Shown piece by piece: positions 5,912 through 21,547 of a DNA stretch of 64,000 nucleotides. Source of the DNA: an uncultured Chloroflexia bacterium (lineage in GTDB: Bacteria; Chloroflexota; Anaerolineae; Promineifilales; UBA4811); the NCBI GenBank assembly GCA_963695825.1, contig CAVOHX010000009.1, forward strand, positions 1,292-65,291. Direction: 5' to 3'. The notes under the pieces were generated by a model, which was not told the DNA's origin, made no database searches, and saw only the letters and a list, made by a program, of their open reading frames with translations. Made by a program: the position numbers and the translations under genes. Positions within the stretch are counted from its first letter, which is position 1. Every line of letters begins with the position of its first letter.

Positions 5912-6030
5912 ATCTTCAGCCAGTCGGGCGGTAGGACGTGGTGAGAAACATGTTAATGACAGAAAGCCAAGACTGATTGAAGCATAATGCATTTATGCAT
6001 GGCCGTCCCTCGAATCCATGAAAGGTACTG

Positions 6031-6486
6031 ATGAAGAAGCTCACTTCTAAAACAACCTTCCTATACAAAAAACTCTTCCCATTCATATGGTTCGGGTTTC
6101 TAAGCATCTTTTTGTGTGTGGGGCTATTTGCGAACATCTTGGGAGATGGCCCTGGCATAATGTTTGTCGTGATTCCTATATGTATGATTGTTTTCGGCTA
6201 TTTTCTAATGAAAAAGCTCGTATGGGACCTGATTGATGAAGTTTATGACGAGGGTACAGCTCTGCTTTTTAGAAATAGAGGAAAGGAATTCCGGGTAAAC
6301 CTGAAGGATATAAAGAACGTCAGCTATGCAACAATGATAAATCCACCCAGGGTTACTTTGAGCATCCGTTACACAACTGAGTTAGGAGATGAACTTAGCT
6401 TCTCACCTCCTGCGAGTTGGATTCCATTTAAGAAGAATAAGGACATTGAGGTATTAATCGACCGTATAGATAAGGCGCGGGGCTAA
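6031..6486 (+). CDS. Hypothetical membrane protein (cassette ORF)
   Basis: 151-aa ORF with two predicted TM helices (FPFIWFGFLSIFLCVGLFANIL, IMFVVIPICMIVFGYFLM). Its stop codon lies inside the following attC R'' box. Confidence 0.55.
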   Translation: MKKLTSKTTFLYKKLFPFIWFGFLSIFLCVGLFANILGDGPGIMFVVIPICMIVFGYFLMKKLVWDLIDEVYDEGTALLFRNRGKEFRVNLKDIKNVSYATMINPPRVTLSIRYTTELGDELSFSPPASWIPFKKNKDIEVLIDRIDKARG

Positions 6487-6553
6487 CCTCGCGCTTTACT
6501 CGGACTGGTGCTCCGCTGCCGCCATGCACCAGCCGGTAAGCTTGGCGTTATGC
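6481..6553 (+). repeat. Integron attC site (cassette boundary)
   Basis: GGCTAAC ... GTTATGC. Internal arms CTCGCGCTTTACTCGGACTGGTGC and GCACCAGCCGGTAAGCTTGGCG pair imperfectly with bulges. Confidence 0.65.
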
Positions 6554-6577
6554 GCCTCATATTCCAAGGAAGAGATC

Positions 6578-7018
6578 ATGAAGATTTCAAGAGTTACAAT
6601 ATTTACGCTTGGTGTAGCCGATCTACGCAAGGCTACTGAATTTTATGAAGCTGTACTTGACACACCTCCAAACACATCCTCTGATGGCATCACCTTCATT
6701 GAGCTTCCGGGAGCTTGGATTTCTCTCTACCCAATTGAGAAACTGGCAGAAGACATATCTCCTGAGATTCCGATTGCTCGCGGTGGATTTAGTGGAGTCA
6801 CGTTTGCCCATAACACTCGCAACAAGGGCGATGTTATTGCCATAGTAAGACGTGCAGAGTCTGCTGGCGCCCGCGTCGTTAAAGAACCACAAGAAAAATT
6901 CTGGGGCGGTTTCAGTGGATACTTCGCCGATCTTGATGGCCATTACTGGGAAGTGGCTTGGGGACCAATGTTTGAGTTTACAGAAAGCGGTGAATTGAAA
7001 TTCAAAGGAAACGCATAA
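6578..7018 (+). CDS. VOC-family (glyoxalase/bleomycin-resistance fold) protein
   Basis: MKISRVTIFTLGVADLRKATEFYEAVL...FSGYFADLDGHYWEVAWGP. ATG at 6578 follows AGGAAG. The listed ORF start at 6524 lies inside the previous attC. Confidence 0.75.
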   Translation: MKISRVTIFTLGVADLRKATEFYEAVLDTPPNTSSDGITFIELPGAWISLYPIEKLAEDISPEIPIARGGFSGVTFAHNTRNKGDVIAIVRRAESAGARVVKEPQEKFWGGFSGYFADLDGHYWEVAWGPMFEFTESGELKFKGNA

Positions 7019-7072
7019 CAAGGCAAATTCAGCCGACGCAAAAAGCGGCGCGGCTGATTTGCAACGTTATGC
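7013..7072 (+). repeat. Integron attC site (60 bp, aadA-like type)
   Basis: GCATAAC-AAGGC-AAATTCAGCCGACGCAAAAAGCGGCGCGGCTGATTT-GCAAC-GTTATGC. R''/R' are perfectly complementary. Confidence 0.85.
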
Positions 7073-7102
7073 CCAATCTGAAAATAGAAAGAATTAAGTA
7101 GG

Positions 7103-7717
7103 ATGTTAAAGATAAAACGTAATGATAAATGCCCCTGTGGAAGCGGCAAAAAATACAAGAAGTGTTGTTATCTTGATTCAGATAAAAATGCTGAAATAAT
7201 AAGAGCAACATCTATTGCAAAAACGTATGAAGAAGCGTTTGCAATACTCTCTAAGCCAACGAAGATCTATCAAATAAAAATAGATCTAATTCGAATGGGA
7301 ATAGATGAGATTGAAGAAGAAATTTCAAGAATTATTGAAATTGAAGACAAACAAACTTTATATGATCTTCATATAAATATACAACATTTATTCGATTGGG
7401 ATAATGATCATATGTTCTCCTTCTATCTTGGTGAAGAATTGTTTGACAGGGATAATGAGTATTCATCAAATCCTCTTGGAGAACATATTGTTTCAAGTTA
7501 TGGGAAACAATCCAAGTCTGCTACTGAATACGAACTACGTGACTTGGATCTGCCAATGGGTTTTTCATTTTGGTATCTGTTCGATTTTGGAGACGAGTTG
7601 GTTCATAAAGTTACTGTAGAAAAAATTCGAGAAATAAAGCCAGAAGAAAGCGGGTTTCCAAAATTAATTGAAAGGAAAGGTAACGCTCCTCCTCAATATG
7701 GAGTATTTGAGGAGTAA
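7103..7717 (+). CDS. SEC-C-motif protein fused to a pRiA4b ORF-3-like domain
   Basis: The N-terminus is [22 protein letters not shown]. The C-terminal part has FSFWYLFDFGDELVHKVTVEKI, resembling the Y.YDFGD.W.H motif of the pRiA4b ORF-3 family. Confidence 0.65.
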   Translation: MLKIKRNDKCPCGSGKKYKKCCYLDSDKNAEIIRATSIAKTYEEAFAILSKPTKIYQIKIDLIRMGIDEIEEEISRIIEIEDKQTLYDLHINIQHLFDWDNDHMFSFYLGEELFDRDNEYSSNPLGEHIVSSYGKQSKSATEYELRDLDLPMGFSFWYLFDFGDELVHKVTVEKIREIKPEESGFPKLIERKGNAPPQYGVFEE

Positions 7718-7733
7718 TATAGGTCATAATGTG

Positions 7734-7865
7734 TCATAACAAGCGTTTTCACAACCGACCGGGCTATAGCGGTGCTTTTTTCAAATGTTGGTGAAGACCA
7801 AAATTTTTCTATTTTGCAAAAGTTGATGCTACGCCCCGCCCGGCGGGTGAAGCGCGCCGTTCTAC
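7734..7865 (+). repeat. Probable long attC site
   Basis: TCATAAC-AAGCGTTTTCAC ... GTGAAGCGCGCC-GTTCTAC. The 3' half GGTGAAGCGCGCCGTT matches the 3' halves of the sites at 15277 and 17100. The R' box is non-canonical. Confidence 0.4.
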
Positions 7866-7899
7866 ACCAAAATACTGAAAAAGCTAAAAACAAAGTATC

Positions 7900-8274
7900 A
7901 TGGCCAAGATAGGACGCAATAGCACATGCCCATGTGGTAGCGGAAAGAAATACAAACGTTGTTGTGAGAAAAAAGAAGCTGCGATGAAGCAGCGTGAGCT
8001 TCCACCTGGACGATTTCGCTACGAATCCGGCAGTTATGGAGGCCCTGGGCGAGGATACATGCCCTCCATTATTTGCTACAAAGAATCAAAGCCAAACTCA
8101 TGGAAGGAACATTTCTGTCTCGTAAAACCAGATGGCATTTTGAATGATGAAAATAAGGTTTCATCAATTGCGGAAAAGCATTTGGTGGCCGCGAAGGCAA
8201 TAATTGCCGCTGGAGGAGGCCCACAAGATTTCGCACTTAAACTGAGGTCCAGGACATCGATGACCCGATCCTAA
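7900..8274 (+). pseudogene. SEC-C-motif protein cassette gene, with its C-terminus interrupted by an IS at ~8247
   Basis: [31 protein letters not shown]... The reading frame runs into the IS terminal repeat (…ALKLRSRTSMTRS*). A possible displaced 3' end, GNHEGYKNVTDFRVVNE*, lies right after the IS (9603-9656). Confidence 0.6.
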
Positions 8275-9596
8275 CGGTAAAAAAGTCCAAGACATCGATG
8301 ACCCTTCCTTTGAATTGCTAATTTTTACGGTTGAATGCTGTAGTCAAAAGAACACACAAATTCATCTCCGAGATAGACTTGTAAAGTTCGAATCTCCGTA
8401 ACGAGAATGGCCTTCACATATGAGTAAATCAGATCTTTTGAAACTTTAAACTTTTCACCAAAAACATCGAGCATGCAATCGCTGCGAATAAATCGAATCA
8501 GGATGATATTGCCGTCAGGGACTTCTTCGATTTTTGGCAACTTGGTGTTTCCACCGAGCGTCTGCGGTGTGGACGATGACTGTTCGATTACCTCCAACGG
8601 GGTCTTGCCTTTCAGACAGCTGTACCGGTGATGTTTGTTATGAAAGCGCTGAAAGTTTTTGCTCTGTTGTTTTAAATGGTTGTAGCTGTTGAACCACTGA
8701 CGGCGGAAAAATTTCCGGTTGTATGTATCATTGAATTTTTCAATCACACCATTACGCCAGGGTTCCCCAATGGGGATAAAGACAGGCTGAACACCAAAGT
8801 GCAAACACAGCCTTATGACCAAACCGGGCGATCGGGGGTACCTGTTGCTGCCGCGAAAACTCAATTCATTGTCAAGTTGCAGAAAATCCGGCAGCCCAAC
8901 GGCTTTCCAGCATCGAAGCAAGCTGCAGGCAACCTGCTCATCATGTTTCGTACGCTGGGACTCGATGTAGACTTGGTGGCTGAACAAATCGATAATATTG
9001 AACGAATAAAATTTGCCGTCTCCCTTGATGTAGCGTGGCCCGACGAGGTCAGCCTGGTGAATGTTGTTGATGCCGAGCGCCTCGGTAAAATAGGGGTATT
9101 CAACGCCCTTGGGAATGTAAGGAGTTTTTTTTAATCAACCCTTCGGCCTTAAGCACCCTCTTGACGGTGCTGTCTGAGGGGAGCTTGCTGCCGACTTTGG
9201 CCAGTTCCCATTTTATGGCTGATGGGCCGATCTGGGCAAATTTATGGGACTCCAGCTGTCGTCGGGTCTCAATGATCCGTTTCTTGTCTGCTGCACTGAT
9301 CGACGCTGGTCGATTTACAGGCGCTCTGGATTTGCCCTTGAACCAATTCGGATCACCGGTTTGGAAGCGCTTTAGCCACTTGAAAAACCAGTTCTTAGAT
9401 CGATTGAGATCATCGTAAATGCTTTTAGGGTCCTCACCCTTTAAGTAGCGTTCGATAGCCGTTTTTCGTATCTCTCTTTCCATCTCGATACTCCTCTTAT
9501 TGTTTTTAAGAAGAGTATCAGAGATACGAAATTACTCAAACAGGGTCATCGATGTGATGAACCTTTTGACCGTTAAGGGTCATCGATGTCTTGGAC
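8247..9596 (-). mobile_element. Insertion sequence (~1.35 kb) with an rve-type DDE transposase and compound terminal inverted repeats
   Basis: Left end 8247-8305 reads GTCCAGGACATCGATGACCC-GATCC-TAACGGT-AAAAAA-GTCCAAGACATCGATGACCCT. It is the imperfect inverted copy of 9541-9596, and each end holds two ~21-bp subrepeats. A perfect 27-bp inverted match also links 8280-8306 with 9575-9601. No clear target-site duplication. Confidence 0.8.
8325..9483 (-). CDS. IS transposase (N-terminal HTH + rve/DDE core). The two frames are joined at an A8 run.
   Basis: ORF 9100..9483 begins MEREIRKTAIERYLKGEDPKS... The downstream frame reads KKTPYIPKGVEYPYFTEALGINNIHQADLVGPRY...LQLDNELSF...PWRNGVIEKFN, giving the D, D, E residues. 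That frame opens exactly at the A8 run (T8 at 9125-9132 on the + strand) and is +1 relative to the first. Confidence 0.8.
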
Positions 9597-9680
9597 TTTT
9601 TGGGTAATCATGAGGGTTATAAAAATGTTACCGATTTCCGTGTGGTGAATGAATAGCGAGGAAAATGTGTAGAACCAATC

Positions 9681-9730
9681 GCTTAACCTGCCCGGAAAAA
9701 TTATCCGTTTTTACGTAAAGGCAAGACTCT
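9681..9730 (+). repeat. Partial attC (5' half only) of the 13212/14044 type
   Basis: GCTTAAC-CTGCCCGG-AAAAATTATCCGTTTTTACGTAAAGG aligns with the 5' halves of the sites at 13212 and 14044. The CCGGCAGGTTAGC partner is missing. Confidence 0.4.
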
Positions 9731-9732
9731 CT

Positions 9733-10050
9733 GTGGGCAAAAAGGCTATCAGTGATTTTAGAAAACTGACTAAAGATCCAGAGCTGATCTCGGATTTGAT
9801 GTTAACTTTCGTTGAAAGTGTCTCTTGGTTTAGCACAGAATTTGGTCCTGACCGAGAAACTTTTTATTCGAGCCCCGAGAACGTGTTTGAAAAAGCTCTT
9901 GAATTAATGAAAAAAAACGATCTTCTTGGTAAATACAAATTACGAGCAAAGAAAATTGTAATGAACACTACCGATGGGTATGGATATCGAGATTCTTTAC
10001 ACGAAAAATACGAAGAAGCGTATATTGAAGTAATACAGAAACTTTGTTGA
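9733..10050 (+). CDS. Hypothetical protein (cassette ORF). The start is uncertain and it may be 5'-truncated.
   Basis: 105-aa ORF from a GTG with no SD, followed by an attC. No recognisable motif. Confidence 0.4.
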   Translation: MGKKAISDFRKLTKDPELISDLMLTFVESVSWFSTEFGPDRETFYSSPENVFEKALELMKKNDLLGKYKLRAKKIVMNTTDGYGYRDSLHEKYEEAYIEVIQKLC

Positions 10051-10097
10051 GTCTCGATTCTGTTTTGAAACGACAGGTCCCAAATGAGAATGAGGCC

Positions 10098-10199
10098 ACA
10101 TAACAAAAGCGTGGATCAGACGGTGTAAAGACAGCGGTTTTACGTCAAGGCCATGCAAACTTGGCATTTATTAAAACCGCTGCTCACGCTCGGTTAGCC
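10098..10199 (+). repeat. Integron attC site
   Basis: ACATAAC-AAAAGCGTGGATCAGACGGT ... ACCGCTGCTCACGCTCG-GTTAGCC, with imperfectly pairing arms. Confidence 0.65.
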
Positions 10200-10225
10200 A
10201 TTTCAAGTTATAAAAAAGGAATAAA

Positions 10226-10525
10226 ATGAAAGAAAAAGACTACAAATCAAATCTTCTTCTTCTAAAAGAAGAGGTAAAGCATTTGCATGAGCCATATTTT
10301 ATTAATGTTGACGAATGGTGTTTGTGTGGCGAGCCCCTTAATGGAGTTACAATAGGATATACAATAGAGGATCAGTGTGCTAGAAAGTTGATTCATTACA
10401 TTGGATTAAAACATGAGCTTCTTATTTTATGTCCAAATGACGTTATAGATATAGACGTAAAAGACAACAAAATACTTGGTTCCTTTTTAAGAAGCGATTA
10501 TGGTAAATTACAAATCAAACCATAA
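10226..10525 (+). CDS. Hypothetical protein (cassette ORF)
   Basis: 99-aa ORF with SD AAGGA upstream of the ATG, flanked by attC sites. No recognisable motif. Confidence 0.5.
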   Translation: MKEKDYKSNLLLLKEEVKHLHEPYFINVDEWCLCGEPLNGVTIGYTIEDQCARKLIHYIGLKHELLILCPNDVIDIDVKDNKILGSFLRSDYGKLQIKP

Positions 10526-10528
10526 AAT

Positions 10529-10657
10529 GTCTAACAAATCATTTGAGCGGGGCCGGGAAAGACCGCAGCTTTTTTGAGCAGCATATCTCGGCAAAATTTT
10601 GGGACCTTAAAATATTCCTCAGAGTGCGTTTCCCGGCCCCTCAATTCTGCGTTATGC
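10529..10657 (+). repeat. Integron attC site (long type, related to the one at 18319)
   Basis: GTCTAAC-AAATCATTTGAGCGGGGCCGGGAAAG ... GTTTCCCGGCCCCTCAATTCTGC-GTTATGC. Confidence 0.75.
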
Positions 10658-10682
10658 CCTCAATAAAAGAGGATGATCATTA

Positions 10683-10971
10683 ATGAAAAAAATCAGGAGA
10701 AATGATCCCTGTCCATGTGGAAGCGGGAAAAAGTACAAAAAATGCTGTCTTTTACAACAAACATCGGATCAATCTTTTTCGTGGGCAGATAATGATGGTA
10801 TCCATTTTGCTGGCTCCGGGTTCTCCTCCTTCTCCAGAGCAATTAAAAAAAATGACAAAAGAATATCAAAAGCAGATTCGGAATTCACCATTATGGGATG
10901 AAATGGTTCAAAAATACGGGAAAAAAGAGGCTGAAAAGCTATTGAAAGAATTCAAAGCCGAAGTCCGTTAA
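10683..10971 (+). CDS. Small SEC-C-motif protein with one apparent frameshift near 10760-10810
   Basis: [26 protein letters not shown]... lies in one frame. The C-terminal part [53 protein letters not shown] lies in the next frame (ORF 10702..10971). Confidence 0.6.
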
Positions 10972-11001
10972 TACAACTTTTGATGAATAAACAGGCACTT
11001 G

Positions 11002-11142
11002 GCATAACTAGTATCTACGGGCTGCACTGGATCGTTGGAACACAGCGGTATTTGATTTTTCCACTTCTTTCGGTGCTCAATCTTATGGCGCCATTGCCAA
11101 TGCTTATATCGTTCCACCGGCAAGTGAGCCCGAGCGTTAGCG
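11002..11142 (+). repeat. Integron attC site (long)
   Basis: GCATAAC-TAGTATCTACGGGCTGCACTGGATCGTTGGAAC ... GTTCCACCGGCAAGTGAGCCCGAGC-GTTAGCG. Confidence 0.65.
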
Positions 11143-11174
11143 ATCATTGATAGATCTTATATCGGGGAGATTTA

Positions 11175-11928
11175 ATGGAGGAACAAGAAAAATATATTCG
11201 TGCGCTTATTGAATTACATCGAGGTCTTGAGAGGCAAGGCCCTGGTGATACAGATTATTCCAACTATATAATTTCACAACTTCCAGAGCTGCCAACAAAT
11301 CCACGTATAGCAGACATCGGTTGCGGTGCTGGTGCAGGAACACTGATTCTGGCGGATAAATTTCGAGCAAAAGTCCGGGCGGTAGATTTTTCTCGAGAAT
11401 TTTTGGATGAACTTGAAGACCGAGCAAAACAGCGCGGCCTTGAACGTTTGGTAGAAATTATCGAATGTGATATGGGAGATCTTGATTGGGAGCCAGGAAG
11501 CCTTGATCTTCTATGGTCTGAAGGAGCCGCTTATAATATTACCTTTGAAGGTGCTTTGAAAGCATGGAGACCATTAATGGCATCTAATGGAATCGCTGTC
11601 ATTTCGGAAATGAACTATTTCACAAGTGACGTACCAGAACCTGTACAAATATTTATGCAAAACGCTTACCCTGCTATCAAAACCGAGTCGGAAAACTCCG
11701 ACATTATAAATTCATCAGGATTTGAAGTTTTAGGAATATACCGTTTGCCGTCAAAGGCCTGGTGGGATAATTACTATGAGCCACTTCGAAACAACATAGA
11801 ATCTTTCAAAAATTCAGATGACGAGTATCATGCAATCGGTTATTAGTGAAACAGAAGAGGAAATGAAATTCTTCGAAGAATATGAAGAATTTTACGGTTA
11901 CTCGTTTTATATCATGAAAGCCGTATAG
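11175..11928 (+). CDS. Class I SAM-dependent methyltransferase with one apparent frameshift near 11815-11830
   Basis: Motif I is IADIGCGAGAGTLILA. ORF 11175..11846 ends ...NSDDEYHAIGY*. The +1 frame continues QSVISETEEEMKFFEEYEEFYGYSFYIMKAV*, ending at 11928. Confidence 0.7.
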
Positions 11929-11936
11929 TGTATTTT

Positions 11937-11996
11937 CGCTAACAAGGCTAATTCAGCCGACGCAAAAAGCCGGGCGGCTGATTAGCAACGTTAGGG
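11937..11996 (+). repeat. Integron attC site (60 bp, aadA-like type)
   Basis: CGCTAAC-AAGGC-TAATTCAGCCGACGCAAAAAGCCGGGCGGCTGATTA-GCAAC-GTTAGGG. Confidence 0.85.
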
Positions 11997-12370
11997 AAAA
12001 AAAAATGGGATAATTGTGACTGTTCCTTTTTGTTTAGAAAACCAAACTTTCCCAAAATATGTGATATGGATGGATATGTGATCGCTGCAAAGTCTATAGT
12101 CAGGCTTTGAAAAACATCTGTTGGCATTAAAAGTTGCAGAAGGCTCCCGATATTCAATAATCGATATCACAGGGGAAGGCTGGCCATATTATTTTGAAGA
12201 TAAGGGAATATCCCGCCTTACAAGAAAAAGAAATGGTTGCAAAAAAAGGTGATTGTGATATTTCAACAATTGGAAAAAGAACACCTCCAATTTGAACAAT
12301 CGTGAAGAATCGATTTCGGCAAGCGGTATGATTAAATTTTTCAAGCTATCGTGGGCTTATAAAAACCATT

Positions 12371-12493
12371 CCCTAACATCTATATGGCCTTCGCTTGTCA
12401 AGGAAAAACTTCTCCCATTAATCGGAAAATTAAATTTATAAGGCTACCTCTTCCGCTCTTGTTTCAGATTCCTTGACAAGCAATTCGTTGGTT
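12371..12493 (+). repeat. Probable attC site closing a cassette with no intact ORF (11997-12370)
   Basis: CCCTAAC...GCTTGTCAAGGAA (13-bp perfect arm) ... TTCCTTGACAAGC-AATTC-GTTGGTT. The 5' spacing is longer than canonical. Confidence 0.45.
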
Positions 12494-12516
12494 CCGGCTG
12501 CATTTTAAAAAGTAGA

Positions 12517-13197
12517 ATGATGAGATTCCAGAGATTAGATAAAGTAAACGACCCCGAAGAGGCTAAAACCAGATCATTTCCAGCTGCAAAATTTTATACC
12601 TATGTTTCATGCTGGACTGCTGAAAAAAATAATGAGGAGTCACTGCCTCTGTGGATATTTATTCTTCGGACATGAAGGGTGTTCGTATTCGGTTGCCAAT
12701 AAATATGTTCAAAGGAAGAGTATCCCCTGATGATAAAACTACAGCTATCCGATTATTCATCCAGAATGCTCTTTCACAGTATTAAGAGATAATTATCATT
12801 ATCCTGTAATGATTATCGGTCCGATGCCCATCATTTATCAAAAAGATCCTTCAAATACAAATAAATGTTTTGAGTTGAAAGATTCAACCGTGGATGTTAG
12901 CCTTTTTCACGCTTGGGCAGTCTAAACATGAGTATTGGTTTTTCGAAAAAGAGTGGAGGTATAAAATTATTGGCATGCCTCTCGAGGGTAAATGGAATAC
13001 AAAAGATTATGATCAATTCCTGGATATCCGCAAAATGAGTTCATTGATGTCGAACTTGATGATTCTGTGATTGAAGAAATGGTAATTCAATTAGGACCAA
13101 AGGCTACTCTTTCGATAAAATCATTGTTGATCTTTTGGTAAAAGAGTATGCAAAGGGCGCTATAGTTTGCGACAGTAGCATTAAAATCAATCTGTGA
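12517..13197 (+). pseudogene. Degraded cassette gene, DUF2971-like, with at least 5 frameshifts
   Basis: Fragments in shifting frames: MMRFQRLDKVNDPEEAKTRSF..YVSCWTAEKNNEESLPLW; IYSSDMKGVRIRLPINMFKGRVSPDD; HEYWFFEKEWRYKIIGMPLEGKW; NEFIDVELDDSVIEEMVIQLGPKA; FDKIIVDLLVKEYAKGAIVCDSSIKINL*. Confidence 0.5.
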
Positions 13198-13211
13198 AAC
13201 TCTAACATATC

Positions 13212-13292
13212 GCTCAACCTGATCGGGAGAACTATGCGGTCTTACGTAAAGGTCTGTGCAGGCTTGAAGGTTGGGAGACCGGCAGGTTAGCT
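13212..13292 (+). repeat. Integron attC site (81 bp), inner part of a composite element
   Basis: GCTCAAC-CTGATCGG ... CCGGCAG-GTTAGCT. Homologous over its whole length to the site at 14044. Confidence 0.7.
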
Positions 13293-13483
13293 CAAACGAT
13301 AGGGCTGCGAGATGAGCCAATTGAGTTTGACAGGCGTCGCTCGCGCTCCGCCTATCAAACTCAATCGAGCCGATCCCCTTCGGGCTTCGCTTCGCTCGGT
13401 CGGCTAGCACGGTAAATTGCAGTAAAAAACAAATGCAATTGCCGCCCCCAGCCGACTGCGGCTCATCTCGCAGCCCGTTCGGT
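13293..13483 (+). repeat. ORF-less, highly structured attC-like element (~190 bp) ending in GTTCGGT
   Basis: A 17-bp perfect closing stem (GGGCTGCGAGATGAGCC 13302-13318 with GGCTCATCTCGCAGCCC 13460-13476) encloses several hairpins: TTGAGTTTGACAGGCG/CGCCTATCAAACTCAA, CCC-TTCG-GGG, AATTGCA/TGCAATT and AGCCG/CGGCT. Confidence 0.5.
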
Positions 13484-13493
13484 GTAAAAGATC

Positions 13494-14030
13494 ATGGAAA
13501 CAGATTTAATCAAAATAAAAAAATTTTCACAAGAAAGAGAAGACGAAAATTGGTATTTTCGTACTTTTTTAAAGGGCTATGATATCAAGAACCTTGATTC
13601 AGTTGTCCATAAGTTATTTAAGCAGGTATCAGAAGCGATCGATTGCACTGCTTGTGGTAATTGCTGCAAAGAAATACAACCCATTCTCAAGAAAAAAGAT
13701 ATAAACAAATTGTCAAAAAGCTTAAACATCACGCCGGATCAATTTGTAACTAAATACGTTGATAAAGACGAAGATGGAGACAACATATTAAATCAACTCC
13801 CATGTCCGTTTCTCAATGATAATAAATGTACCCAATATGAATCACGTCCAGTAGATTGTGCATCATATCCACATTTACACAAAAAAGATTTTGTTTTTAG
13901 GTTAATTGGCGTAGTCAATAATTATTCAATTTGCCCAATAGTCTTCAATGTGTATGAAGCTTTAAAAAACAAACTAAAATCTGAATTTATCGATTTCCAG
14001 GAAGAGTTTGGTGAATTCGAGAACTATTAG
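13494..14030 (+). CDS. YkgJ-family cysteine-cluster (CxxCxxCC) protein
   Basis: CTACGNCCKEIQP ... LPCPFLNDNKCTQYESRPVDCASYPHL. Confidence 0.7.
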   Translation: METDLIKIKKFSQEREDENWYFRTFLKGYDIKNLDSVVHKLFKQVSEAIDCTACGNCCKEIQPILKKKDINKLSKSLNITPDQFVTKYVDKDEDGDNILNQLPCPFLNDNKCTQYESRPVDCASYPHLHKKDFVFRLIGVVNNYSICPIVFNVYEALKNKLKSEFIDFQEEFGEFENY

Positions 14031-14043
14031 CACCGAACAAAGC

Positions 14044-14124
14044 GCTGAACCTGACCGGAAAAACTATGCGGTTTTTCGTAAAAGCTTGTGCAGATACGAA
14101 GGATGTGGGGGCGGCAGGTTAGCT
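14044..14124 (+). repeat. Integron attC site (81 bp), inner part of a composite element
   Basis: GCTGAAC-CTGACCGG-AAAAACTATGCGGTTTTTCGTAAAAG...GCGGCAG-GTTAGCT. It is preceded by a further CCGAAC box (14034-14039). Confidence 0.7.
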
Positions 14125-14195
14125 AAATCGATAAGCGGACCGCTCGCTAACGCTCGCTCTAGCTTCGCTCGTCCGCTTATCGGCGACCGTTCGGC
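14125..14195 (+). repeat. ORF-less hairpin element ending in GTTCGGC, a short homologue of 13293-13483
   Basis: 12-bp perfect stem CGATAAGCGGAC/GTCCGCTTATCG with a 30-nt CGCTCGCT-rich loop, then GCGACC-GTTCGGC. The final box is complementary to CCGAAC at 14034. Confidence 0.5.
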
Positions 14196-14246
14196 CCGTG
14201 AAAGACGCCTTAGCGATGCCGACTCCAAGAGAGGAGGGTAGTAGCC

Positions 14247-15233
14247 GTGAGAGTCGCTATTGTCGGAAGCTTCAAGGACCAGGTCCACGATCGATCGGGA
14301 AAGAACCGAGCACTGTTCGAAACTGCCTGTAAATCAATTGGTCAGAAGCTCGCGGAGCGCAGGGACAAGCTCATCGTTGCCCATCCGGACAATCCCGATT
14401 CGGCGGAATACTACGCACGAAAGGGCTTCCGACCAGTCGATCCACACCGCTGGCTTCAATGCCAGGTTTCTCCAGGTGATCCCCTCCTGAAAGGACATAT
14501 CGATTCGGTCGAACTGTGTGACGCCCTCGTGCTCATCGGAGGTCAAAATGGGACCATGGCGGCTGGACTCGCTGCTCTCCGCACACGGAAGCTGATGATT
14601 CCCATCGCCGCATTTGGGGGTGCAGCTGCTGATCTTCTGAGAATACACGGGCTCTATCGAAGCATGGACGACGAGCTTAGGAATCTAGATCTCGGAGCTA
14701 ATAATTGGATCCTGTCATTAACCTCCTCACTCGAGCGAGTTCTCTTTTCTTTCCCCAAGGTTCTGATCATACACGGGAGGGGCGATTCTGGAGAGGAACT
14801 CAAGGCAATGATAGATACAAGCTCTGCCAGCTCTGGTTCAGGAATTGGCGGCATTGCCTCACCTGTAATAATGAACCTTGCGGGGTTAGGCGCCGTTTCG
14901 GTGCCCGGCGTATTCGAAACGACAGCCGAGACGGCTTCGGCCGCGATAGCAGTCGTCACCGCAGACGACCTAGGCGGTTTCGCTCGCTCAGGCGATCGGA
15001 CCCTCACTGCGTTGGAGCTCCAATTGACGCCTCGAGCAAGGGAGAACGTCTGGGTCGAGGTTGGGTGGTGCTGGGCGCGATTCGGACGTGAGCGTGTGTT
15101 CATCTGGCTGAGGGATTCCGTCGATCTACCGTCGGACTTGCAGGGCGTCGCATGGACTCGCTCGCCAACCCTCGAGGGGGCATGGGAGAGCATCAGCCAG
15201 TTCTTGCATCGGCTGAGAACGGCTGCAGAGTGA
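14247..15233 (+). CDS. Two-domain protein: N-terminal SLOG/LOG-like Rossmann domain and C-terminal bacterial TIR-like domain (Cap12/PycTIR type). Candidate defence effector.
   Basis: GTG start lies 8 nt after AGAGGAGGG. N-terminal part: RVAIVGS..LIVAH..DALVLIGGQNGTMAAGLAALRTRKLMIPIAAFGGAA. C-terminal part: KVLIIHGRGD..AAIAVVTADDLGG..PRARENVWVEVGWCWARFGRERVFIWLRDSVDLPSDLQGVAW. GC is clearly higher than in neighbouring cassettes. Confidence 0.7.
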   Translation: MRVAIVGSFKDQVHDRSGKNRALFETACKSIGQKLAERRDKLIVAHPDNPDSAEYYARKGFRPVDPHRWLQCQVSPGDPLLKGHIDSVELCDALVLIGGQNGTMAAGLAALRTRKLMIPIAAFGGAAADLLRIHGLYRSMDDELRNLDLGANNWILSLTSSLERVLFSFPKVLIIHGRGDSGEELKAMIDTSSASSGSGIGGIASPVIMNLAGLGAVSVPGVFETTAETASAAIAVVTADDLGGFARSGDRTLTALELQLTPRARENVWVEVGWCWARFGRERVFIWLRDSVDLPSDLQGVAWTRSPTLEGAWESISQFLHRLRTAAE

Positions 15234-15276
15234 CCAACGGGGAGGACGGGTTGCGGCTGCAAGAATGCAGTTGAGG

Positions 15277-15336
15277 GCCGAACATGGCGCTTGCAACCGA
15301 CGCAAAGAACAGCGCGGCTGAAGCGCGACGTTCGGC
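15277..15336 (+). repeat. Integron attC site (60 bp)
   Basis: GCCGAAC-ATGGC-GCTTGCAACCGACGCAAAGAACAGCGCGGCTGAAGC-GCGAC-GTTCGGC. R''/R' are perfectly complementary. Confidence 0.85.
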
Positions 15337-15363
15337 TAAACATTAACGATAGAAGGATTAAAC

Positions 15364-16773
15364 ATGGAAAATTGTACAAGCAAAGAAGAGCTTGCAGAAA
15401 AGTTCAGTATTCTTATGCGTGCGTATAACGAAAATCCTTATCCAAGCTTGGCTCAAAGGAAAAAAGTGCTGCAGGCTCTAAAAAAATCGTTAATTGCGCA
15501 TGAGAATAATTTTTATCAAGCACTCAATGAAGATTACGGATATCGAAGTGAGTTTGACACGCTAGTTGCGGACGTTCTTCCAAGTGTAATGGGGATAAAT
15601 TATACGCTGAAACGCATCGGAAAGTGGATGAAACCTTCGAGGAGGCATGCAGGTATAATGTTAGCTCCTTCAAGAGTTGAGGTGCATTATCAGCCGGTCG
15701 GAGTGGTAGGCATTATTGTGCCATGGAACTTTCCGTTGTTTTTGGCACTGTCACCTGCAACACAAGCTCTTGCTGCAGGTAATCGGGTGATGATCAAATT
15801 GAGTGAATTTACTCCGAATACAAACAAAGTTCTGATCGAAGCGACACAGTGTATTAATGATCATTTGGTTATCACCGAAGGAGAGAGCGCAACGGGTGCG
15901 GCATTCTCAGCCTTGCCGTTTGATCATTTGGTCTTTACGGGATCGACAACGGTGGGGCGTTATGTGGCAAAGGCAGCGGCTGATAATCTAACGCCGATCA
16001 CCCTCGAATTGGGCGGGAAGTCGCCTGTTATTTTTGCTGAGGATGCGAACTGGGAAACGGCGATTGACGGGGTGATCTTAGGAAAAGCAATCAATTCCGG
16101 GCAAATTTGTGTTTCCCCCGATTATGTACTCGTTCCTCGTGGCAAAGAAGAGACCTTTGTTCGTTTATTCAAAGAGCGTTATCAAGCGTATTTTGCTAAC
16201 GCTAAAAACAAGAATATCCAGACTCATATTATTAATCAGAAACAATATGAGCGGCTGCAAGGGTTCCTAGATGACGCAAGAGAAAAAGGGGCCGAGGTTC
16301 ACGTAATTCAAGAGGGAGATTCGAGTTCTGAAAAGAGAATTCTATATCCTCATCTTCTTACCAAAGTAGGTGAAGATATGGAGGTCATGAAGCAGGAAAT
16401 TTTTGGTCCTGTAATGCCGGTGCTACCATACAATTCGATTGACGAGTGTATCGAGAGAATCAATGCACGGCCACGACCTTTAGCACTTTACGTCATGTCA
16501 ACCAACAAAGACACCGTTAACAAGATTTTGAAACATACCCATAGTGGTGGTGCATGCGTTAACGATACGATTATGCATGTCTCGGTGGAGGATGCTCCGT
16601 TCGGTGGTATCGGCAACTCTGGATTTGGACATTATCACGGCGAAGAAGGCTTTCGGAGGCTGTCAAATGCTAAAACTGTCTTAACGTCTAAGACTTGGCT
16701 ACCGAAGAATAAGTTTTTTCTTTGCTATCGAGACCTTATGTTTAATAATTTAAGGAAGTTCTTGTTGAGATAG
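15364..16773 (+). CDS. NAD(P)-dependent aldehyde dehydrogenase (coniferyl-aldehyde-dehydrogenase-like)
   Basis: 469 aa. Motifs VGIIVPWNFPL, ELGGKSPVIF, SGQICVSPDYVLV and EIFGPVMPV. Confidence 0.85.
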   Translation: MENCTSKEELAEKFSILMRAYNENPYPSLAQRKKVLQALKKSLIAHENNFYQALNEDYGYRSEFDTLVADVLPSVMGINYTLKRIGKWMKPSRRHAGIMLAPSRVEVHYQPVGVVGIIVPWNFPLFLALSPATQALAAGNRVMIKLSEFTPNTNKVLIEATQCINDHLVITEGESATGAAFSALPFDHLVFTGSTTVGRYVAKAAADNLTPITLELGGKSPVIFAEDANWETAIDGVILGKAINSGQICVSPDYVLVPRGKEETFVRLFKERYQAYFANAKNKNIQTHIINQKQYERLQGFLDDAREKGAEVHVIQEGDSSSEKRILYPHLLTKVGEDMEVMKQEIFGPVMPVLPYNSIDECIERINARPRPLALYVMSTNKDTVNKILKHTHSGGACVNDTIMHVSVEDAPFGGIGNSGFGHYHGEEGFRRLSNAKTVLTSKTWLPKNKFFLCYRDLMFNNLRKFLLR

Positions 16774-16885
16774 TTGTAATGAAAATTAACAGACGCGCCT
16801 TTATTAATATATGCTCAGGTGAACTAATGGATTTTTTTGGGAAAGTTCGTCCTTCATTTCCTATTCTGGTGAATCTCGAACCAAT

Positions 16886-16958
16886 GCTGAACAAGGCGCT
16901 GCACCCGGCCGGCAATTCCGCTGTGCTGCATAGCCGCCGGTGAGCTTGATCGTTATGA
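16886..16958 (+). repeat. Integron attC site
   Basis: GCTGAAC-AAGGCGCTGCACCCGGCCGGC ... GCCGCCGGTGAGCTTGATC-GTTATGA. Confidence 0.6.
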
Positions 16959-16975
16959 GTATTGAACGAAATAGG

Positions 16976-17149
16976 ATGAACCATTTAACCACGATCAGGA
17001 GAATATTCTTAATTGCTGGCGTGGCCTTGTTCCTTTTTTCCCTCGCCCTGATTTTCTCGGAACGCTGGACAAACGTTATTAATTTAACAAATGTAATTGC
17101 CCTAACAAAGCGCTTGCAGACGGATGCGCAAAAAGTAGCGCACCGCTGA
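16976..17149 (+). CDS. Small hypothetical membrane protein (cassette ORF)
   Basis: MNHLTTIRRIFLIAGVALFLFSLALIFSERW... with one TM helix. The 3' end runs into the attC. Confidence 0.4.
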   Translation: MNHLTTIRRIFLIAGVALFLFSLALIFSERWTNVINLTNVIALTKRLQTDAQKVAHR

Positions 17150-17164
17150 AGCGCGACGTTAGCA
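17100..17164 (+). repeat. Integron attC site (65 bp)
   Basis: CCCTAAC-AAAGC-GCTTGCAGACGGATGCGCAAAAAGTAGCGCACCGCTGAAGC-GCGAC-GTTAGCA. Confidence 0.8.
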
Positions 17165-17174
17165 GATAAAAAAT

Positions 17175-18296
17175 ATGAAAGATTTTCCGAAAAACCTCAA
17201 GTCTTGGTTTCCAGGATTTATCATACTTACTTGTTTCGTTATCTCCTCCGCTATTTATGCTTTCTCTATAAGGGGGAATCAATGGCAATTGTTTCGTGCA
17301 AAAGGGCTACAAGACAAATATGAGCATTTTAATGAAATGGTTTTCATAGATGAACATGTTGGGTTTTTAGGAGGCCGGAGTATATCCGATAATCCCGGAC
17401 AAGGAAAAAATATTACAAAAAATGCAGATGCGATTATTTATAAAACCATCGATGGGGGGGAAACATGGGGGAAAAAATCATTCCAAAAAGGAAACATTGA
17501 GAGCATCGAAGCTAAATCGAATGTTATTTACGTACTCAAACGTGTATTCACTGAAAACAGCCTAAATAATACGAAATCAAGCATTATAAAATCAAACAAT
17601 CAAGGAGAAACCTGGAAGGAAATTTATAACACAGAACTACCATTACACATTCTAAAATTATCTTTTTCTGATTCTAAAAATGGAATCGCAGTATTTCAAA
17701 ATCAGGATGATAGAAGCTCGGTAATTATCAAACAAACAATGGACGGTGGGAAAAGTTGGAATTCTGTCGCACAAAGAAATGATTTTGCTGACTACATAAA
17801 CATCCTTTTGATAGAAGGCCAACTTCACTATCTAAGCACAAAGGAAAAAAGCCATCAGAAAAGTGTTTTGACTATTATAAACCTACACACAGAACGTATC
17901 AAAAAAGAGAGTCTACCTGAAAATTTCGATGCAAGGATTATAACGAACGATAATAAGGGGAATATTTACATTTTGGGAAAAAAGGGGGAAAATTTAACCA
18001 TTTTATCGAAAAACCTTGCTGGCATCATATCGAGTATACCGGTTCCTACTTCATTTAATAATTTATCACCATATTCACTTAACATTACTGGCGATAATAT
18101 ACATTTATTTTTAGGAGAGAAGGGGACAATTATAGGTGTTTCGAAACGTTTTTTTGTAAGTACAAACCTGGGTAAAACCTGGAAAGAAGAGAAACTAAAG
18201 TCTAAGCTATATGTTAATCCTATAGCTTATCACGAAGCCAACCATATTTGGGCATATAGCGGTGGTGGTTCTATTCAAAGAAGGATTGTCCCTTAA
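17175..18296 (+). CDS. Membrane-anchored BNR/Asp-box repeat protein
   Basis: N-terminal TM helix (FPGFIILTCFVISSAIYAF). Asp-boxes TIDGGETWG, SNNQGETWK, TMDGGKSWN and STNLGKTWK. Confidence 0.7.
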   Translation: MKDFPKNLKSWFPGFIILTCFVISSAIYAFSIRGNQWQLFRAKGLQDKYEHFNEMVFIDEHVGFLGGRSISDNPGQGKNITKNADAIIYKTIDGGETWGKKSFQKGNIESIEAKSNVIYVLKRVFTENSLNNTKSSIIKSNNQGETWKEIYNTELPLHILKLSFSDSKNGIAVFQNQDDRSSVIIKQTMDGGKSWNSVAQRNDFADYINILLIEGQLHYLSTKEKSHQKSVLTIINLHTERIKKESLPENFDARIITNDNKGNIYILGKKGENLTILSKNLAGIISSIPVPTSFNNLSPYSLNITGDNIHLFLGEKGTIIGVSKRFFVSTNLGKTWKEEKLKSKLYVNPIAYHEANHIWAYSGGGSIQRRIVP

Positions 18297-18318
18297 TCAG
18301 GTAAGATGACATATTTTC

Positions 18319-18449
18319 TGCTAACCTGGCATTTGAGAGGGACCGGGAAAAGCCGTGCCGTTTTTGAAAGGTATTTTTGAACAGACCTTTTGGCTTTTTA
18401 AGCAGCTTTTTGATTCATCGTTTCCCGGACCCTCAGTTTATCGTTGGGC
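18319..18449 (+). repeat. Integron attC site (long type, related to the one at 10529)
   Basis: TGCTAAC-CTGGCATTTGAGAGGGACCGGGAAAAG ... GTTTCCCGGACCCTCAGTTTATC-GTTGGGC. Confidence 0.75.
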
Positions 18450-18452
18450 TAC

Positions 18453-19082
18453 ATGCAGAAACCAATGGAAACTCTTGAAGAGAAAATTGCCCGTGTAGTG
18501 AAGGAGGAAGTGGCCGTCGTACCATACGATCCTATCTGGCCGAAGGCTTTTGAGCAGGAACGGCTTTATCTGCTGTCCTGCCTACCTACTAATTTGATAA
18601 ATAGAATCGAGCATTTTGGTAGCACTGCTGTTCCTGGGCTGTCAGCAAAGCCCATTGTAGACATTTTGGTCGAGGTGACGAGCCTCGATAAGACCAGGGA
18701 GATAATTGCACCCATTCTCGAAGCGCAGGGGTATGACTATTTTTGGCGTCCGTCATGGGGGGATGATACGCCACCATTCTATGCATGGTTTATCAAACGG
18801 GATAAGAACGGAAATAGAACACACCATATTCACATGGTTGAGGCCGAATTTGAGCACTGGGACAGACTCCTATTTCGAGATTACCTCATTGACTATCCAG
18901 ATATTGCGTGGGAATATTCCAATCTTAAAGAAAAACTCTCTGACGTGCATCAGGGTGACCGTGTGGTTTACACGCAGGCCAAGAGTGACTTCATTGGGAA
19001 AGTTACTGAGAGGGCAATTCGTTACTACAGAAAGGCCCAACCATTAAATTCAGCAGACGCAAAAAACCGCGCCGCGGAATAA
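18453..19082 (+). CDS. GrpB-family protein
   Basis: MQKPMETLEEKIARVV...IEHFGSTAVPGLSAKPIVDILVEV...THHIHMVE. ATG at 18453, since the listed TTG at 18444 lies inside the attC. The last ~15 codons are attC sequence. Confidence 0.75.
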   Translation: MQKPMETLEEKIARVVKEEVAVVPYDPIWPKAFEQERLYLLSCLPTNLINRIEHFGSTAVPGLSAKPIVDILVEVTSLDKTREIIAPILEAQGYDYFWRPSWGDDTPPFYAWFIKRDKNGNRTHHIHMVEAEFEHWDRLLFRDYLIDYPDIAWEYSNLKEKLSDVHQGDRVVYTQAKSDFIGKVTERAIRYYRKAQPLNSADAKNRAAE

Positions 19083-19253
19083 GGGCCGCGGCGAGAAATA
19101 ATTACACATCTTGCTTGTTTTTTTGGCCCGTCTACCGCGTTACATCCACCAACACATATCCCGATATGCGCCGGCGGATGTGCCTTGTAGACGAACCAAA
19201 ATCCTGCGCAATCTTGTGTAATTATTTCTCGCCGAGACCCTAAACCGTTATCC
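19036..19253 (+). repeat. attC site (aadA-like type) interrupted by a 158-bp inverted-repeat element
   Basis: CCCAAC-CATTAAATTCAGCAGACGCAAAAAACCGCGCCGCGGAA-TAA-[insert]-TAA-ACC-GTTATCC. Removing the insert and one TAA restores a ~57-bp site collinear with the sites at 7013 and 11937. Confidence 0.65.
19083..19240. mobile_element. MITE-like element (158 bp) with 26-bp terminal inverted repeats and a TAA target duplication
   Basis: The TIRs GGGCCGCGGCGAGAAATAATTACACA (19083-19108) and TGTGTAATTATTTCTCGCCGAGACCC (19215-19240) match at 24/26 positions. The interior also pairs (CGTCTAC..ACATCC with GGATGT..GTAGACG). It is flanked by TAA at 19080-19082 and 19241-19243. No coding capacity. Confidence 0.65.
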
Positions 19254-19280
19254 TCAAGTATGGAAAAATATAGGGATTAA

Positions 19281-19325
19281 GTCTTCATTCTTGATAAATC
19301 AGGGCTTAGAGTGAAGAATGAAGAC
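19281..19325 (+). terminator. Strong hairpin after the last cassette, a possible terminator
   Basis: 12-bp perfect stem GTCTTCATTCTT/AAGAATGAAGAC with a 21-nt loop. A T5 run follows, but only after 8 nt. Confidence 0.3.
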
Positions 19326-19740
19326 CCCGGTGGTTTTTCAAAAATTGAGAAGATTTTCATTTGATATGCCCCCTTCTCTTGGCGATAACCGGCTCGAAGT
19401 GGGTCATAGACAGGATCGGCGTTAAAATACCATCAATGAAAGCAAACCCTAAATTCGTCCTTGTCTTAGGAGGGACCATTCTATGTTTGGCGCCTTATGG
19501 TTGAATGGACAATTAGACACTCACCCGATTGATTTTATCCCCTCACGTGTCATCTTGATCATTCATACGCTAGTACGCCCAGAGTTCCCGATGCGTCCCA
19601 ATATCATATCCGTTTTTACGTAACGAGCCGTATAATCGCTGTGAAGCGTGTTACGGATACGTGTTTTTTGTTTTATTACCAGACTAACCTGTTTAAAAAC
19701 CCCAGTTTGGACATTATTATGGTCATTTTACCGGTTATCA

Positions 19741-20387: not shown

Positions 20388-20411
20388 ATTTAGTAATTTG
20401 CAAGTAATTGC

Positions 20412-21474: not shown

Positions 21475-21547
21475 ATTAGTTATTTCCCGGAAATTGAGCG
21501 GCAACCGGATAGTTACTTTATTAAGCGTTAATTTGTCTGAATCGATT

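Follow-up and report, generated by a model that had tools for sequence, protein, structure and literature searches.

A decayed chromosomal integron, very probably from an uncultured Desulfobacterales bacterium, on a contig assigned to Chloroflexota

The cassette array and its attC sites

The window analyzed here is the 64-kb stretch of contig CAVOHX010000009.1 between positions 1,292 and 65,291 (forward strand; all positions below are those of the window), and its subject is an array of integron-type gene cassettes within a region of low GC content (4.04-21.88 kb, 32-50% GC, with single cassettes reaching 57%) that is surrounded by DNA of 58-65% GC. The integron integrase, IntI, folds the bottom strand of an attC site into a hairpin made up of an R box, an unpaired spacer, an L box and extrahelical bases. 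It cuts at the G|TT position of the R' box, and circles consisting of an open reading frame (ORF) plus its attC site are excised and re-inserted at attI. A cassette derives from a circle that was opened at G|TT, so its first six nucleotides (TTRRRY) pair with its own R'' box. Between 6481 and 19253 the boxes could be located exactly for 15 complete attC sites and one truncated to its 5' half, termed a1 to a16. All 15 complete sites share one polarity, opening on the + strand with the ...AAC box and closing with the GTT... box, and each site sits 3' of a + strand ORF or ORF remnant. Their lengths run from 60 to 141 bp except for a11 (164 bp), a16 (219 bp) and a10 (284 bp), and there are at least four families, which include a 60-nt aadA-like type, a type of about 100 nt with a conserved CGGTTTTACGTAAAGG loop and a type of about 130 nt, in addition to others. 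The initial annotation, made from the letters alone, had proposed an array of this kind with a single attC polarity, and its palindromes are real and lie essentially where it had placed them, the three sites it quoted as examples (a2, a8, and a12) included, while its figure of about 18 sites was too high. The core AGCCGACGC...GCGGCT, which it had assigned to the short sites in general, is present in a2 and a8 and approximately in a12, and the stop codons that it had often placed within R'' are found there only for a1 and a2, several other ORFs stopping inside the attC site outside R''.

The ORFs of the 16 cassettes are small, co-oriented, and mutually unrelated according to Pfam and PADLOC, as had been described at the outset together with their likeness to a cluster of attC sites that has no integron-integrase (CALIN). 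All lie on the + strand. Cassette 1 (6031-6553) has a 151-aa ORF without a family match followed by a1 (6481-6553, GGCTAAC...GTTATGC), cassette 2 (6554-7072) encodes a protein of the glyoxalase/bleomycin-resistance fold (PF00903) followed by the 60-bp site a2 (7013-7072), and cassette 3 (7073-7865) a SEC-C plus PRiA4_ORF3 protein followed by a3 (7734-7865). Cassette 4 (7866-9740) holds a SEC-C motif protein split by an insertion sequence (IS) and ends in the half site a4 (9669 to ~9740), whose R'' box, GTAGAAC, starts at 9669 and whose 3' half is lost. A 5'-truncated DUF6155 ORF (Pfam profile positions 75-151 of 170) precedes a5 (10098-10199) in cassette 5 (9741-10199), a 99-aa ORF precedes a6 (10529-10657) in cassette 6 (10200-10657), and a SEC-C motif protein of about 96 aa, broken by a 1-nt indel at 10815, precedes a7 (11002-11142) in cassette 7 (10658-11142). 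Cassette 8 (11143-11996) carries an S-adenosylmethionine (SAM)-dependent methyltransferase gene (Pfam) and the 60-bp site a8 (11937-11996). Cassette 9 (11997-12493) has no + strand ORF of 50 aa or more ahead of a9 (12371-12493). The ORF of cassette 10 (12494-13483) is broken and, compared with the sister contig (ENA ERZ25039600 contig_12460), about 70 nt short at its 5' end; it is followed by the 284-bp site a10 (13200-13483). Cassette 11 (13484-14195) encodes a CxxCxxCC zinc/iron-chelating domain protein (PF03692) upstream of the 164-bp site a11 (14032-14195). Cassette 12 (14196-15336) encodes a 328-aa protein whose C terminus bears a TIR domain of the CAP12/Pycsar type (PF10137) and ends in a12 (15277-15336). 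Its ORF (14247-15233) is unlike its neighbors in having 57% GC, and it matches the PADLOC candidate system PDC-S35 as well as PycTIR, which makes this a possible anti-phage cassette. A 469-aa aldehyde dehydrogenase (PF00171) and a 54-aa ORF share cassette 13 (15337-16958) with a13 (16886-16958), a 69-aa ORF and a14 (17100-17164) make up cassette 14 (16959-17164), a 373-aa BNR/sortilin-repeat protein (Pfam) and a15 (18319-18449) cassette 15 (17165-18449), and a GrpB protein (PF04229) and a16 (19035-19253) cassette 16 (18450-19253). The last is the final attC site of the array, and no attC site was found 3' of a16 in the sister contig.

The palindromes are genuine attC sites, and the evidence for this goes far beyond chance. 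Specifically, when the cassette-circle rule was scored over 14 junctions, 48 of the 56 variable positions matched, a value reached in none of 100,000 permutations (p<1e-5), and the controls averaged 1.68 matches out of 4 for non-adjacent pairs and 1.87 out of 4 for same-site pairs. The rule is obeyed perfectly at nine of the 14 junctions and fails at two (a9 to a10 and a13 to a14), and for the first of these the sister contig shows that the nucleotides missing from the window are those at the start of cassette 10. The R'' box of the half site a4 agrees with the tail of a3 at six of six positions, and a11 agrees at six of six on both of its sides. An inner box pair, GCTGAAC...GTTAGCT, was considered as the true R boxes of a10 and a11 and was rejected, as only the outer boxes obey the rule. 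Folding of the bottom strands, a check that had been suggested for these palindromes, gave R and L boxes with extrahelical bases: for nine short sites (four from the window and five foreign) the RNAalifold consensus has 21 pairs, seven of them with compensatory changes, and comprises an R box with invariant AAC/GTT, an unpaired spacer, an L stem and two bulged bases on the 3' arm. Within the L stem three consecutive pairs change on both sides in three to five of the nine sequences. When sites were folded individually the z scores ranged from -1.1 to -10 over all sites, and the long sites also fold, extrahelical bases having been examined on the nine short ones.

Two covariance models were searched against the 64 kb. 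For the first (R1) we used six attC sites that do not come from the window (one of a class 1 integron of E. coli, two of Desulforapulum pHRM2a and one each of plasmids of Citrobacter, Thiolapillus, and Desulfosarcina), and for the second (R2) three attC sites of a related contig, L085 (L numbers denote the comparison sequences). Model R1 recovered a2 (77.6 bits, E 1e-20), a8 (67.7 bits, E 1e-17), a12 (E 4e-14), a14 (40.7 bits, E 2e-9) and the 5' part of a16 (19035-19091, E 2e-6). The match boundaries coincide with the annotated ones, all are on the minus (bottom) strand, and the only other matches at E<1 are weak reverse-strand images of a2 and a8. Model R2 recovered a5 (70.2 bits, E 6e-21), a10 (13200-13304, E 5e-7) and a11 (E 3.5e-4). 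Together they detect eight of the 15 complete sites at E values from 1e-21 to 1e-3, and neither finds a site outside the array anywhere in the 64 kb. Sites a2 and a8 are 90.7% and 89.5% identical, respectively, to a 59-nt attC site on the E. coli plasmid NZ_AP024115.1, where it lies downstream of intI1 between a methyltransferase cassette and qacEdelta1 (L003, 4001-4053). This plasmid is a human-derived E. coli IncI plasmid with a class 1 integron, and the 60-nt attC type is also present on plasmids of Desulforapulum, Desulfosarcina, Thiolapillus, and an estuarine Citrobacter. The methyltransferase cassette of the class 1 integron was considered as a homologue of that in the window and rejected, the genes not being homologous. 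Other searches were less informative. Rfam contains no attC family, and the Rfam scan gave no match at gathering score and two chance matches at E<5. A strict RYYYAAC...GTTRRRY regular expression gave one candidate pair per strand, none passing the arm-complementarity filter, because the boxes are relaxed (e.g., GCTGAAC and GTTGGTT), and an ad hoc arm-alignment scan was dropped as neither sensitive nor strand-specific.

Two mobile elements interrupt the array. The insertion sequence in cassette 4 (8248-9608, minus strand, 1361 bp) has a helix-turn-helix ORF and an rve_3 DDE ORF (Pfam). It is missing from the sister contig, and the empty-site joint from 8247 to 9609 was found in metagenome run X19. 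Inside a16, which is otherwise a short site, lies a 159-bp palindrome (19082-19240) resembling a miniature inverted-repeat transposable element (MITE), with 27-bp inverted ends (GGGCCGCGGCGAGAAATAATTACACA) and a TAA target duplication. The inverted repeat is 93% complementary, and its DNA fold reaches -42 kcal/mol (z -8.2). In metagenome contigs the empty-site joint from 19079 to 19241 is seen, the 162 bp missing there (19079-19240) representing the 159-bp insert and one copy of the 3-bp target-site duplication. The words of this element reach a depth of 2,600-7,800x in marine-sediment metagenomes compared with about 10x for its flanks, and it is found there with many different flanks; neither PLSDB plasmids nor Rfam gave a match. 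In both a10 and a11 the L' arm is separated from the R' box by an additional strong hairpin (13297-13481, about 185 nt, and 14131-14188), and the MITE in a16 occupies the same relative position, so palindromic elements may have a preference for the L'-arm/R'-box part of attC sites. The depth over the a10 hairpin is likewise elevated (80-220x). A further observation concerns the motif CGGTTTT(T)ACGTAAAGG, which is kept in the loop, a part expected to be variable, of a4, a5, a10, and a11 (9700-9716, 10137-10153, 13229-13245, and 14066-14082) and of three L085 sites (e1-e3). A lone 17-nt copy, equal to the a4 version, lies at 19610-19626 in the foreign segment described below.

The integrase remnant and the chromosomal locus

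The minus strand left of the array carries at 5399-5509 a remnant of the integrase gene, the first ~35 codons of intI with one in-frame stop (MKNKSKFRPNS*LKLMDQVRDVLRYLHFAYRTEQTY), whose reading frame ends just upstream of a radical-SAM gene. A tblastn search of the window with IntI1 (WP_000845048, verified identical in L003) gave a single match (5472-5398, minus strand, aa 14-38, 52% identity, E 3e-4), and the sole NCBIfam match of the remnant is to NF011946, 'integron integrase' (positions 8-38 of 337, E 4e-5). Its nucleotide sequence is 73% identical to the 5' end of the full-length intI genes in L094, L095, and L112. The stub is directed away from the cassettes, which lie upstream of it, and is on the strand of the attC bottom strands, and this layout relative to the array is that of the complete relatives L131, L150, L119, L138, and L145. 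The initial annotation had reported no integrase in the window and had expected intI and attI on the left. No functional one exists, as a tyrosine-recombinase domain (PF00589) is missing from all ORFs of at least 100 aa in the 64 kb, and the stub, which it missed, stands at the place and on the strand that it predicted; the 4.1-6.0 kb region accordingly holds more than the radical-SAM gene and the dead Y1 transposase to which it had been reduced. An intact intI beside the array was not found. In 80 related genomes tblastn with IntI1 revealed no integrase near the Na+/H+ exchanger gene that also flanks this locus, and an exact 40-mer from the stub region had no match in the GTDB representative genomes, so that the genome behind the window is not one of the species representatives of that database.

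Where relatives have attI and the cassette promoter (Pc), the window has other DNA. Homology with L085 stops at 5565; after the stub the L085 and L086 region holds a TTGACA-17-TATGG-like motif, and from 5566 onward the window differs and has a Y1 fragment and a repeat. The former (5627-5910, + strand, ~94 codons with an in-frame stop) is from a tyrosine transposase of the REP-associated/IS200-like type (REP, repetitive extragenic palindrome), matches NCBIfam NF047646 REP_Tyr_transpos at profile positions 2-79 of 146 (E 4e-6), and is, as had been suspected, truly a fragment. The repeat (5762-6017, + strand) consists of the 3' part of the Y1 fragment and about 100 nt downstream. The closest GTDB relative, MFD03551.bin.2.4 (L005), has four copies of it with 78-94% identity (250-424, 2018-2264, 5943-6012, and 14284-14371), one directly upstream of a Na+/H+ exchanger gene.

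The integrase gene is preserved to a different degree in L085, where two tandem remnants are found (9434-9650 and 9870-9981), an internally deleted copy and the older 35-codon stub held in common with the window. The deleted copy keeps the N-terminal 50 codons and ~20 codons of the C-terminus, which match the two ends of the full-length intI in L094 and L095 at 93% identity, and has lost the 786 bp between them. A metagenome scan with the N-terminus of this gene showed IntI-like ORFs at 79 of 80 loci, many of them full length and 43-51% identical to IntI1. The tandem remnants suggest that two integrases succeeded each other at one locus. As judged from these comparisons, the lineage once had a working integron here, the integrase of which decayed to different degrees among genomes.

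The locus itself is conserved among relatives. The same chromosomal position is recognized in at least seven related Desulfobacterales contigs, namely the sister contig (L001/L002), L085 (169 kb) and L086-L090 from metagenome-assembled genomes (MAGs) of Desulfobacterales at NCBI, which share the frame AcrB-EpmA-Tag-(AlkD)-DUF6868-...-cassettes-intI remnant-radical SAM-67-aa ORF-(exchanger)-SLC12 permease-CorA. The sister contig is an independent assembly whose left flank and array are 97.5-99.8% identical to the window; besides being without the IS, it has another cassette in place of 12016-12501. The arrays of L085 and L086-L090 are shorter and have other cassette sets. Cassettes 9 and 15 recur in L085 behind other attC sites with identical 6-nt starts, cassette 15 having the same start, the same TTAGCA end and a different preceding attC site. 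A homologue of cassette 8 in L086 also follows a different attC site, and an a9-type attC is present there as well. Metagenome contigs also show cassette-sized deletions between attC sites: a deletion joint from 10647 to 11938 fuses a6 to a8, and loose contig ends fall at 11938 and 11992. Cassettes therefore move as units bounded at G|TT.

The left flank points to the host. On the minus strand the radical-SAM gene (4505-5426) appears as two overlapping ORFs, both with PF04055, and is intact (274/291 aa) in L001/L002, L085, and L086; it is always accompanied by a conserved 67-aa ORF (4225-4428, minus strand). Farther left are the Na+/H+ exchanger gene (2688-3939, + strand), which has a frameshift near 3340 and is intact (416 aa) in the sister contig, and an SLC12/amino-acid permease gene (1-2011, minus strand; Pfam AA_permease and SLC12) with an in-frame stop, cut by the end of the window. 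The permease region is 97.5% identical at the nucleotide level to contig_12460, and the same gene adjoins the locus in L085-L090. The best relatives of the exchanger are all Desulfobacterota MAGs (97-75% amino acid identity), with 97% for an uncultured delta proteobacterium, 91% for Desulfobacteraceae, and 87% for SG8_13. The gene is missing at this position in the five MAG contigs L086-L090, which argues that it is an insertion in the window lineage. In the sister contig the CorA, ABC transporter, EpmA, Tag, and radical-SAM proteins share 90% clusters with proteins that carry the name 'Desulfobacterales bacterium'. From this gene content and from the synteny kept on both sides in at least seven other contigs we have high confidence that the array belongs to an uncultured Desulfobacterales bacterium, with a chromosome of sulfate-reducer type. 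The question of the host, which the initial annotation had raised by noting Chloroflexota-like genes next to the array, would thus be largely answered for the array and its left flank, the Chloroflexota-like DNA starting only at 21877.

Is such an array still in use? Given that half of the CALINs surveyed by Cury 2016 (PMC4889954) are in genomes that encode IntI elsewhere, it could be that this one remains an active platform served in trans by an intact integrase at another place in the same Desulfobacterales genome, as has been proposed for many CALINs. Cassette content and order do vary among genomes that share the same dead intI stub, and the same habitats often yield close homologues of IntI at full length. 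However, L085 indicates that a younger intI copy stood beside the array until recently, which can explain the variation without any action in trans, and in the window lineage the attI/Pc region has been replaced. We therefore entertain continued activity in trans only tentatively.

Assembly quality and the right-hand joints

The quality of the assembly bears on both the pseudogenes and the joints. Illumina-based contigs differ from the window by single-base indels at many places, including those at 9709, 10222, 10815, and 11825, and single-base indels or stops split the genes for the exchanger (3340), the permease (1625), and the radical-SAM protein (5100-5215), two cassette ORFs (10815 and 11825), ccdA (20000-20110), a thioredoxin gene (21760), and lepA (45551-47145). 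For those split genes that are covered, the Illumina-based contigs and the sister contig carry the intact form. From the single-base indels and the splitting of housekeeping genes such as lepA it follows that the window is an error-prone long-read assembly in which most 'pseudogenes' are artifacts and pseudogene calls are unreliable. The break in the radical-SAM gene, specifically, is a homopolymer or indel error of the assembly, because the gene is intact in the sister contig; the Y1 transposase is in this respect unlike it.

To the right of the array the native region extends from 19254 to 19531 (+ strand) and includes the first 57 codons of a pentapeptide-repeat gene, which is cut at 19531. 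Up to this point, 278 bp past the last attC site, the window is 99.8% identical to L001, and beyond it the two are unrelated. The native continuation, consisting of the pentapeptide gene, a PemK toxin-antitoxin pair, AlkD, Tag, EpmA, and AcrB, is kept in L001, L085, and L086. The window continues instead with a foreign low-GC segment (19532-21876, minus strand) containing CcdA-like, DsbA-like, DsbB, and TlpA-type thioredoxin genes (Pfam) and truncated at both ends, and then, outside the integron, with a GC-rich (60-65%) chromosome of Chloroflexota type (21877-64000). The joint at 19531/19532 cuts genes on both sides and that at 21876/21877 a gene on the left only, the tetratricopeptide-repeat (TPR)/regulator ORF on its right reading through the joint. 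There is no repeat, transposase, integrase or other mobile-element gene at either of them, and neither is backed by any other dataset examined. A contig of run X19 starts to match at 19531 after 197 unlike nucleotides, and a second X19 contig spans 20110-21875 and then has 1176 nt unlike the window. Since the joints are without support in other datasets, the contig is probably a chimera of a Desulfobacterales locus, the 2.3-kb Dsb segment, and Chloroflexota DNA.

That the last part is from Chloroflexota is indicated by SecD at 31.8 kb, the named homologues of which are all from Chloroflexota, including Anaerolineae, Anaerolineales, Ardenticatenia, and Promineifilaceae. The same part has adjacent genes of the amino-acid-kinase, GHMP-kinase, and UbiA-prenyltransferase families (40582-43260). 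Their predicted products are consistent with an isopentenyl-phosphate kinase, a mevalonate kinase, and a prenyltransferase of the alternative mevalonate route. The set fits Chloroflexota and was probably the source of the Chloroflexota-like impression in the initial annotation.

If the contig were correct, an Anaerolineae-type Chloroflexota, as the present host, would have recently taken up a stretch of Desulfobacterales chromosome, at least 20 kb long, with the array in it. In its favor, the whole window lies within one record of 205,542 bp deposited in NCBI and ENA, the left flank (59% GC) is close to the right (61%) with a tetranucleotide correlation of 0.83-0.85, and Chloroflexi are among the phyla with reported integrons (Cury 2016, PMC4889954). 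Against this, the left flank and array closely match the sister contig (97.5-99.8% identity), where the flanking genes to the left and right fall into clusters, at 90% or more, with proteins of Desulfobacterales MAGs, the native continuation is severed in mid-gene with a second mid-gene cut 2.3 kb on, neither joint has a transposase, integrase, or repeat, and it is precisely at 19531 and 21876 that contigs of other runs part from the window. Moreover, in four metagenomes that cover the left flank and array 10-70x, depth over the right flank is zero; no indexed run contains more than 5% of its words, and the Chloroflexota DNA is missing from all runs that carry the cassettes. We consider a Chloroflexota host improbable. 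The version in which both joints are real, giving a marine-sediment Chloroflexota genome of Anaerolineae type with a fresh block of at least 20 kb from Desulfobacterales that is 97-99% identical to the donor and holds the 16-cassette array, seems to us more improbable by a shade; were it true, a complete bank of cassettes would have crossed between phyla very recently, minus its integrase.

A decayed integron and its relation to known systems

We propose that the region from 5.4 to 19.25 kb is very probably a decayed chromosomal integron of an uncultured Desulfobacterales bacterium of marine or estuarine sediment, a CALIN in IntegronFinder terms, and that its joins are probably chimeric. IntI once excised and re-inserted circles of an ORF and its attC site at this locus, and each cassette bears the scar of the circular form, the first six nucleotides that pair with its own R''. 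The integrase is now dead, with ~35 N-terminal codons left, the place of attI/Pc is taken by the Y1-transposase fragment and repeat, and an IS and a MITE have landed in the array. The array would now be a frozen cassette bank or one mobilized only in trans, and the variation between strains would have arisen while the second, younger copy of intI, seen internally deleted in L085, was still intact. The joins to the 2.3-kb Dsb segment and to the Chloroflexota DNA are most likely chimeras of error-prone long-read assembly.

Several points weigh against this proposal. Tetranucleotide composition separates the left from the right flank poorly (r 0.83-0.85 versus 0.91-0.92) and, tried as an arbiter of the chimera question, could not decide it, and the chimera is inferred from missing support and taxonomy rather than from the assembly's own reads. 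The intI remnant is short and its E value is about 1e-4, yet its position and strand are those predicted, and four contigs share it; no attI is recognizable by sequence in the window. As to the attC sites, the junctions a9 to a10 and a13 to a14 violate the chain rule, the covariance models are family-specific and reach only eight of the 15 complete sites, and a1, a3, a7, and a13 are supported by boxes, chain rule, and fold alone, with modest fold z scores (-1.1 to -3.0). That the palindromes might instead be a genome-wide family of REP/BIME type (BIME, bacterial interspersed mosaic element), possibly mobilized by the neighboring Y1 (REP-associated tyrosine, RAYT) transposase, a reading for which one could cite the RAYT-like fragment adjoining the array and the other abundant palindromic repeats (the 159-bp element and the a10 hairpin), has virtually no chance of being right, as the sites vary in sequence and length yet share a structure, lie only downstream of ORFs, to whose ends they are tied, with a single polarity, obey the cassette-circle rule, match attC sites of a class 1 integron, have no model match elsewhere in the 64 kb, and in relatives adjoin intI genes.

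The decayed integron that we propose resembles known systems to different extents. A CALIN has at least two attC sites and no integron-integrase nearby (Cury 2016, PMC4889954), and the array shares with this class the absence of an intact intI within 4 kb, the heterogeneous attC sites, and cassette functions that are mostly unknown or miscellaneous. It differs in size, as only 6.6% of CALINs exceed 10 sites (Cury 2016, PMC4889954) and its 15 complete sites place it in the top ~7%. It also differs in its remnant. A recognizable intI remnant accompanies 15 of 279 CALINs by the criterion of a C-terminal profile (Cury 2016, PMC4889954), and the stub in the window, being N-terminal only, would fail that criterion and escape the usual screens based on such profiles. 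With sedentary integrons, such as the Vibrio superintegron and those of Xanthomonas, in which intI decay is frequent, it has in common a fixed chromosomal locus, cassettes that vary between strains and, in its relatives, toxin-antitoxin genes in or next to the array. The attC repeats of classical sedentary integrons are near-identical, whereas those in the window are heterogeneous, and the latter has 16 cassettes compared with tens to hundreds. Of the features used to define a sedentary integron (the same locus across a lineage or more than 19 attC sites, these being homogeneous), a locus shared by at least seven contigs is found together with 16 heterogeneous sites. The likeness to class 1 integrons (the aadA-type attC and the methyltransferase attC of NZ_AP024115.1) is in the attC sites, which agree in their length of ~60 nt, box order, bulge positions, the L-box stem CAGCCG-A-CGC / GCG-CGGCTG, and ~90% identity. 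By contrast, the window array has no intI1, 3'-conserved segment, transposon or plasmid backbone, or resistance genes.

Nothing in the locus departs from the known integron mechanism, and our understanding of how integrons work is unchanged by it. What the locus documents is how a CALIN originates when intI decays step by step while the integron keeps its place in the chromosome, and related genomes show three stages of this: the gene at full length, a copy with an internal deletion, and a 35-codon stub. As the MAG record is probably chimeric, anyone who relied on the contig as it stands would mistakenly ascribe an integron to Chloroflexota. Finally, the ~90% identity of a 60-nt attC site to one in a clinical class 1 integron provides a concrete link between the cassette pool of marine sediments and mobile integrons.

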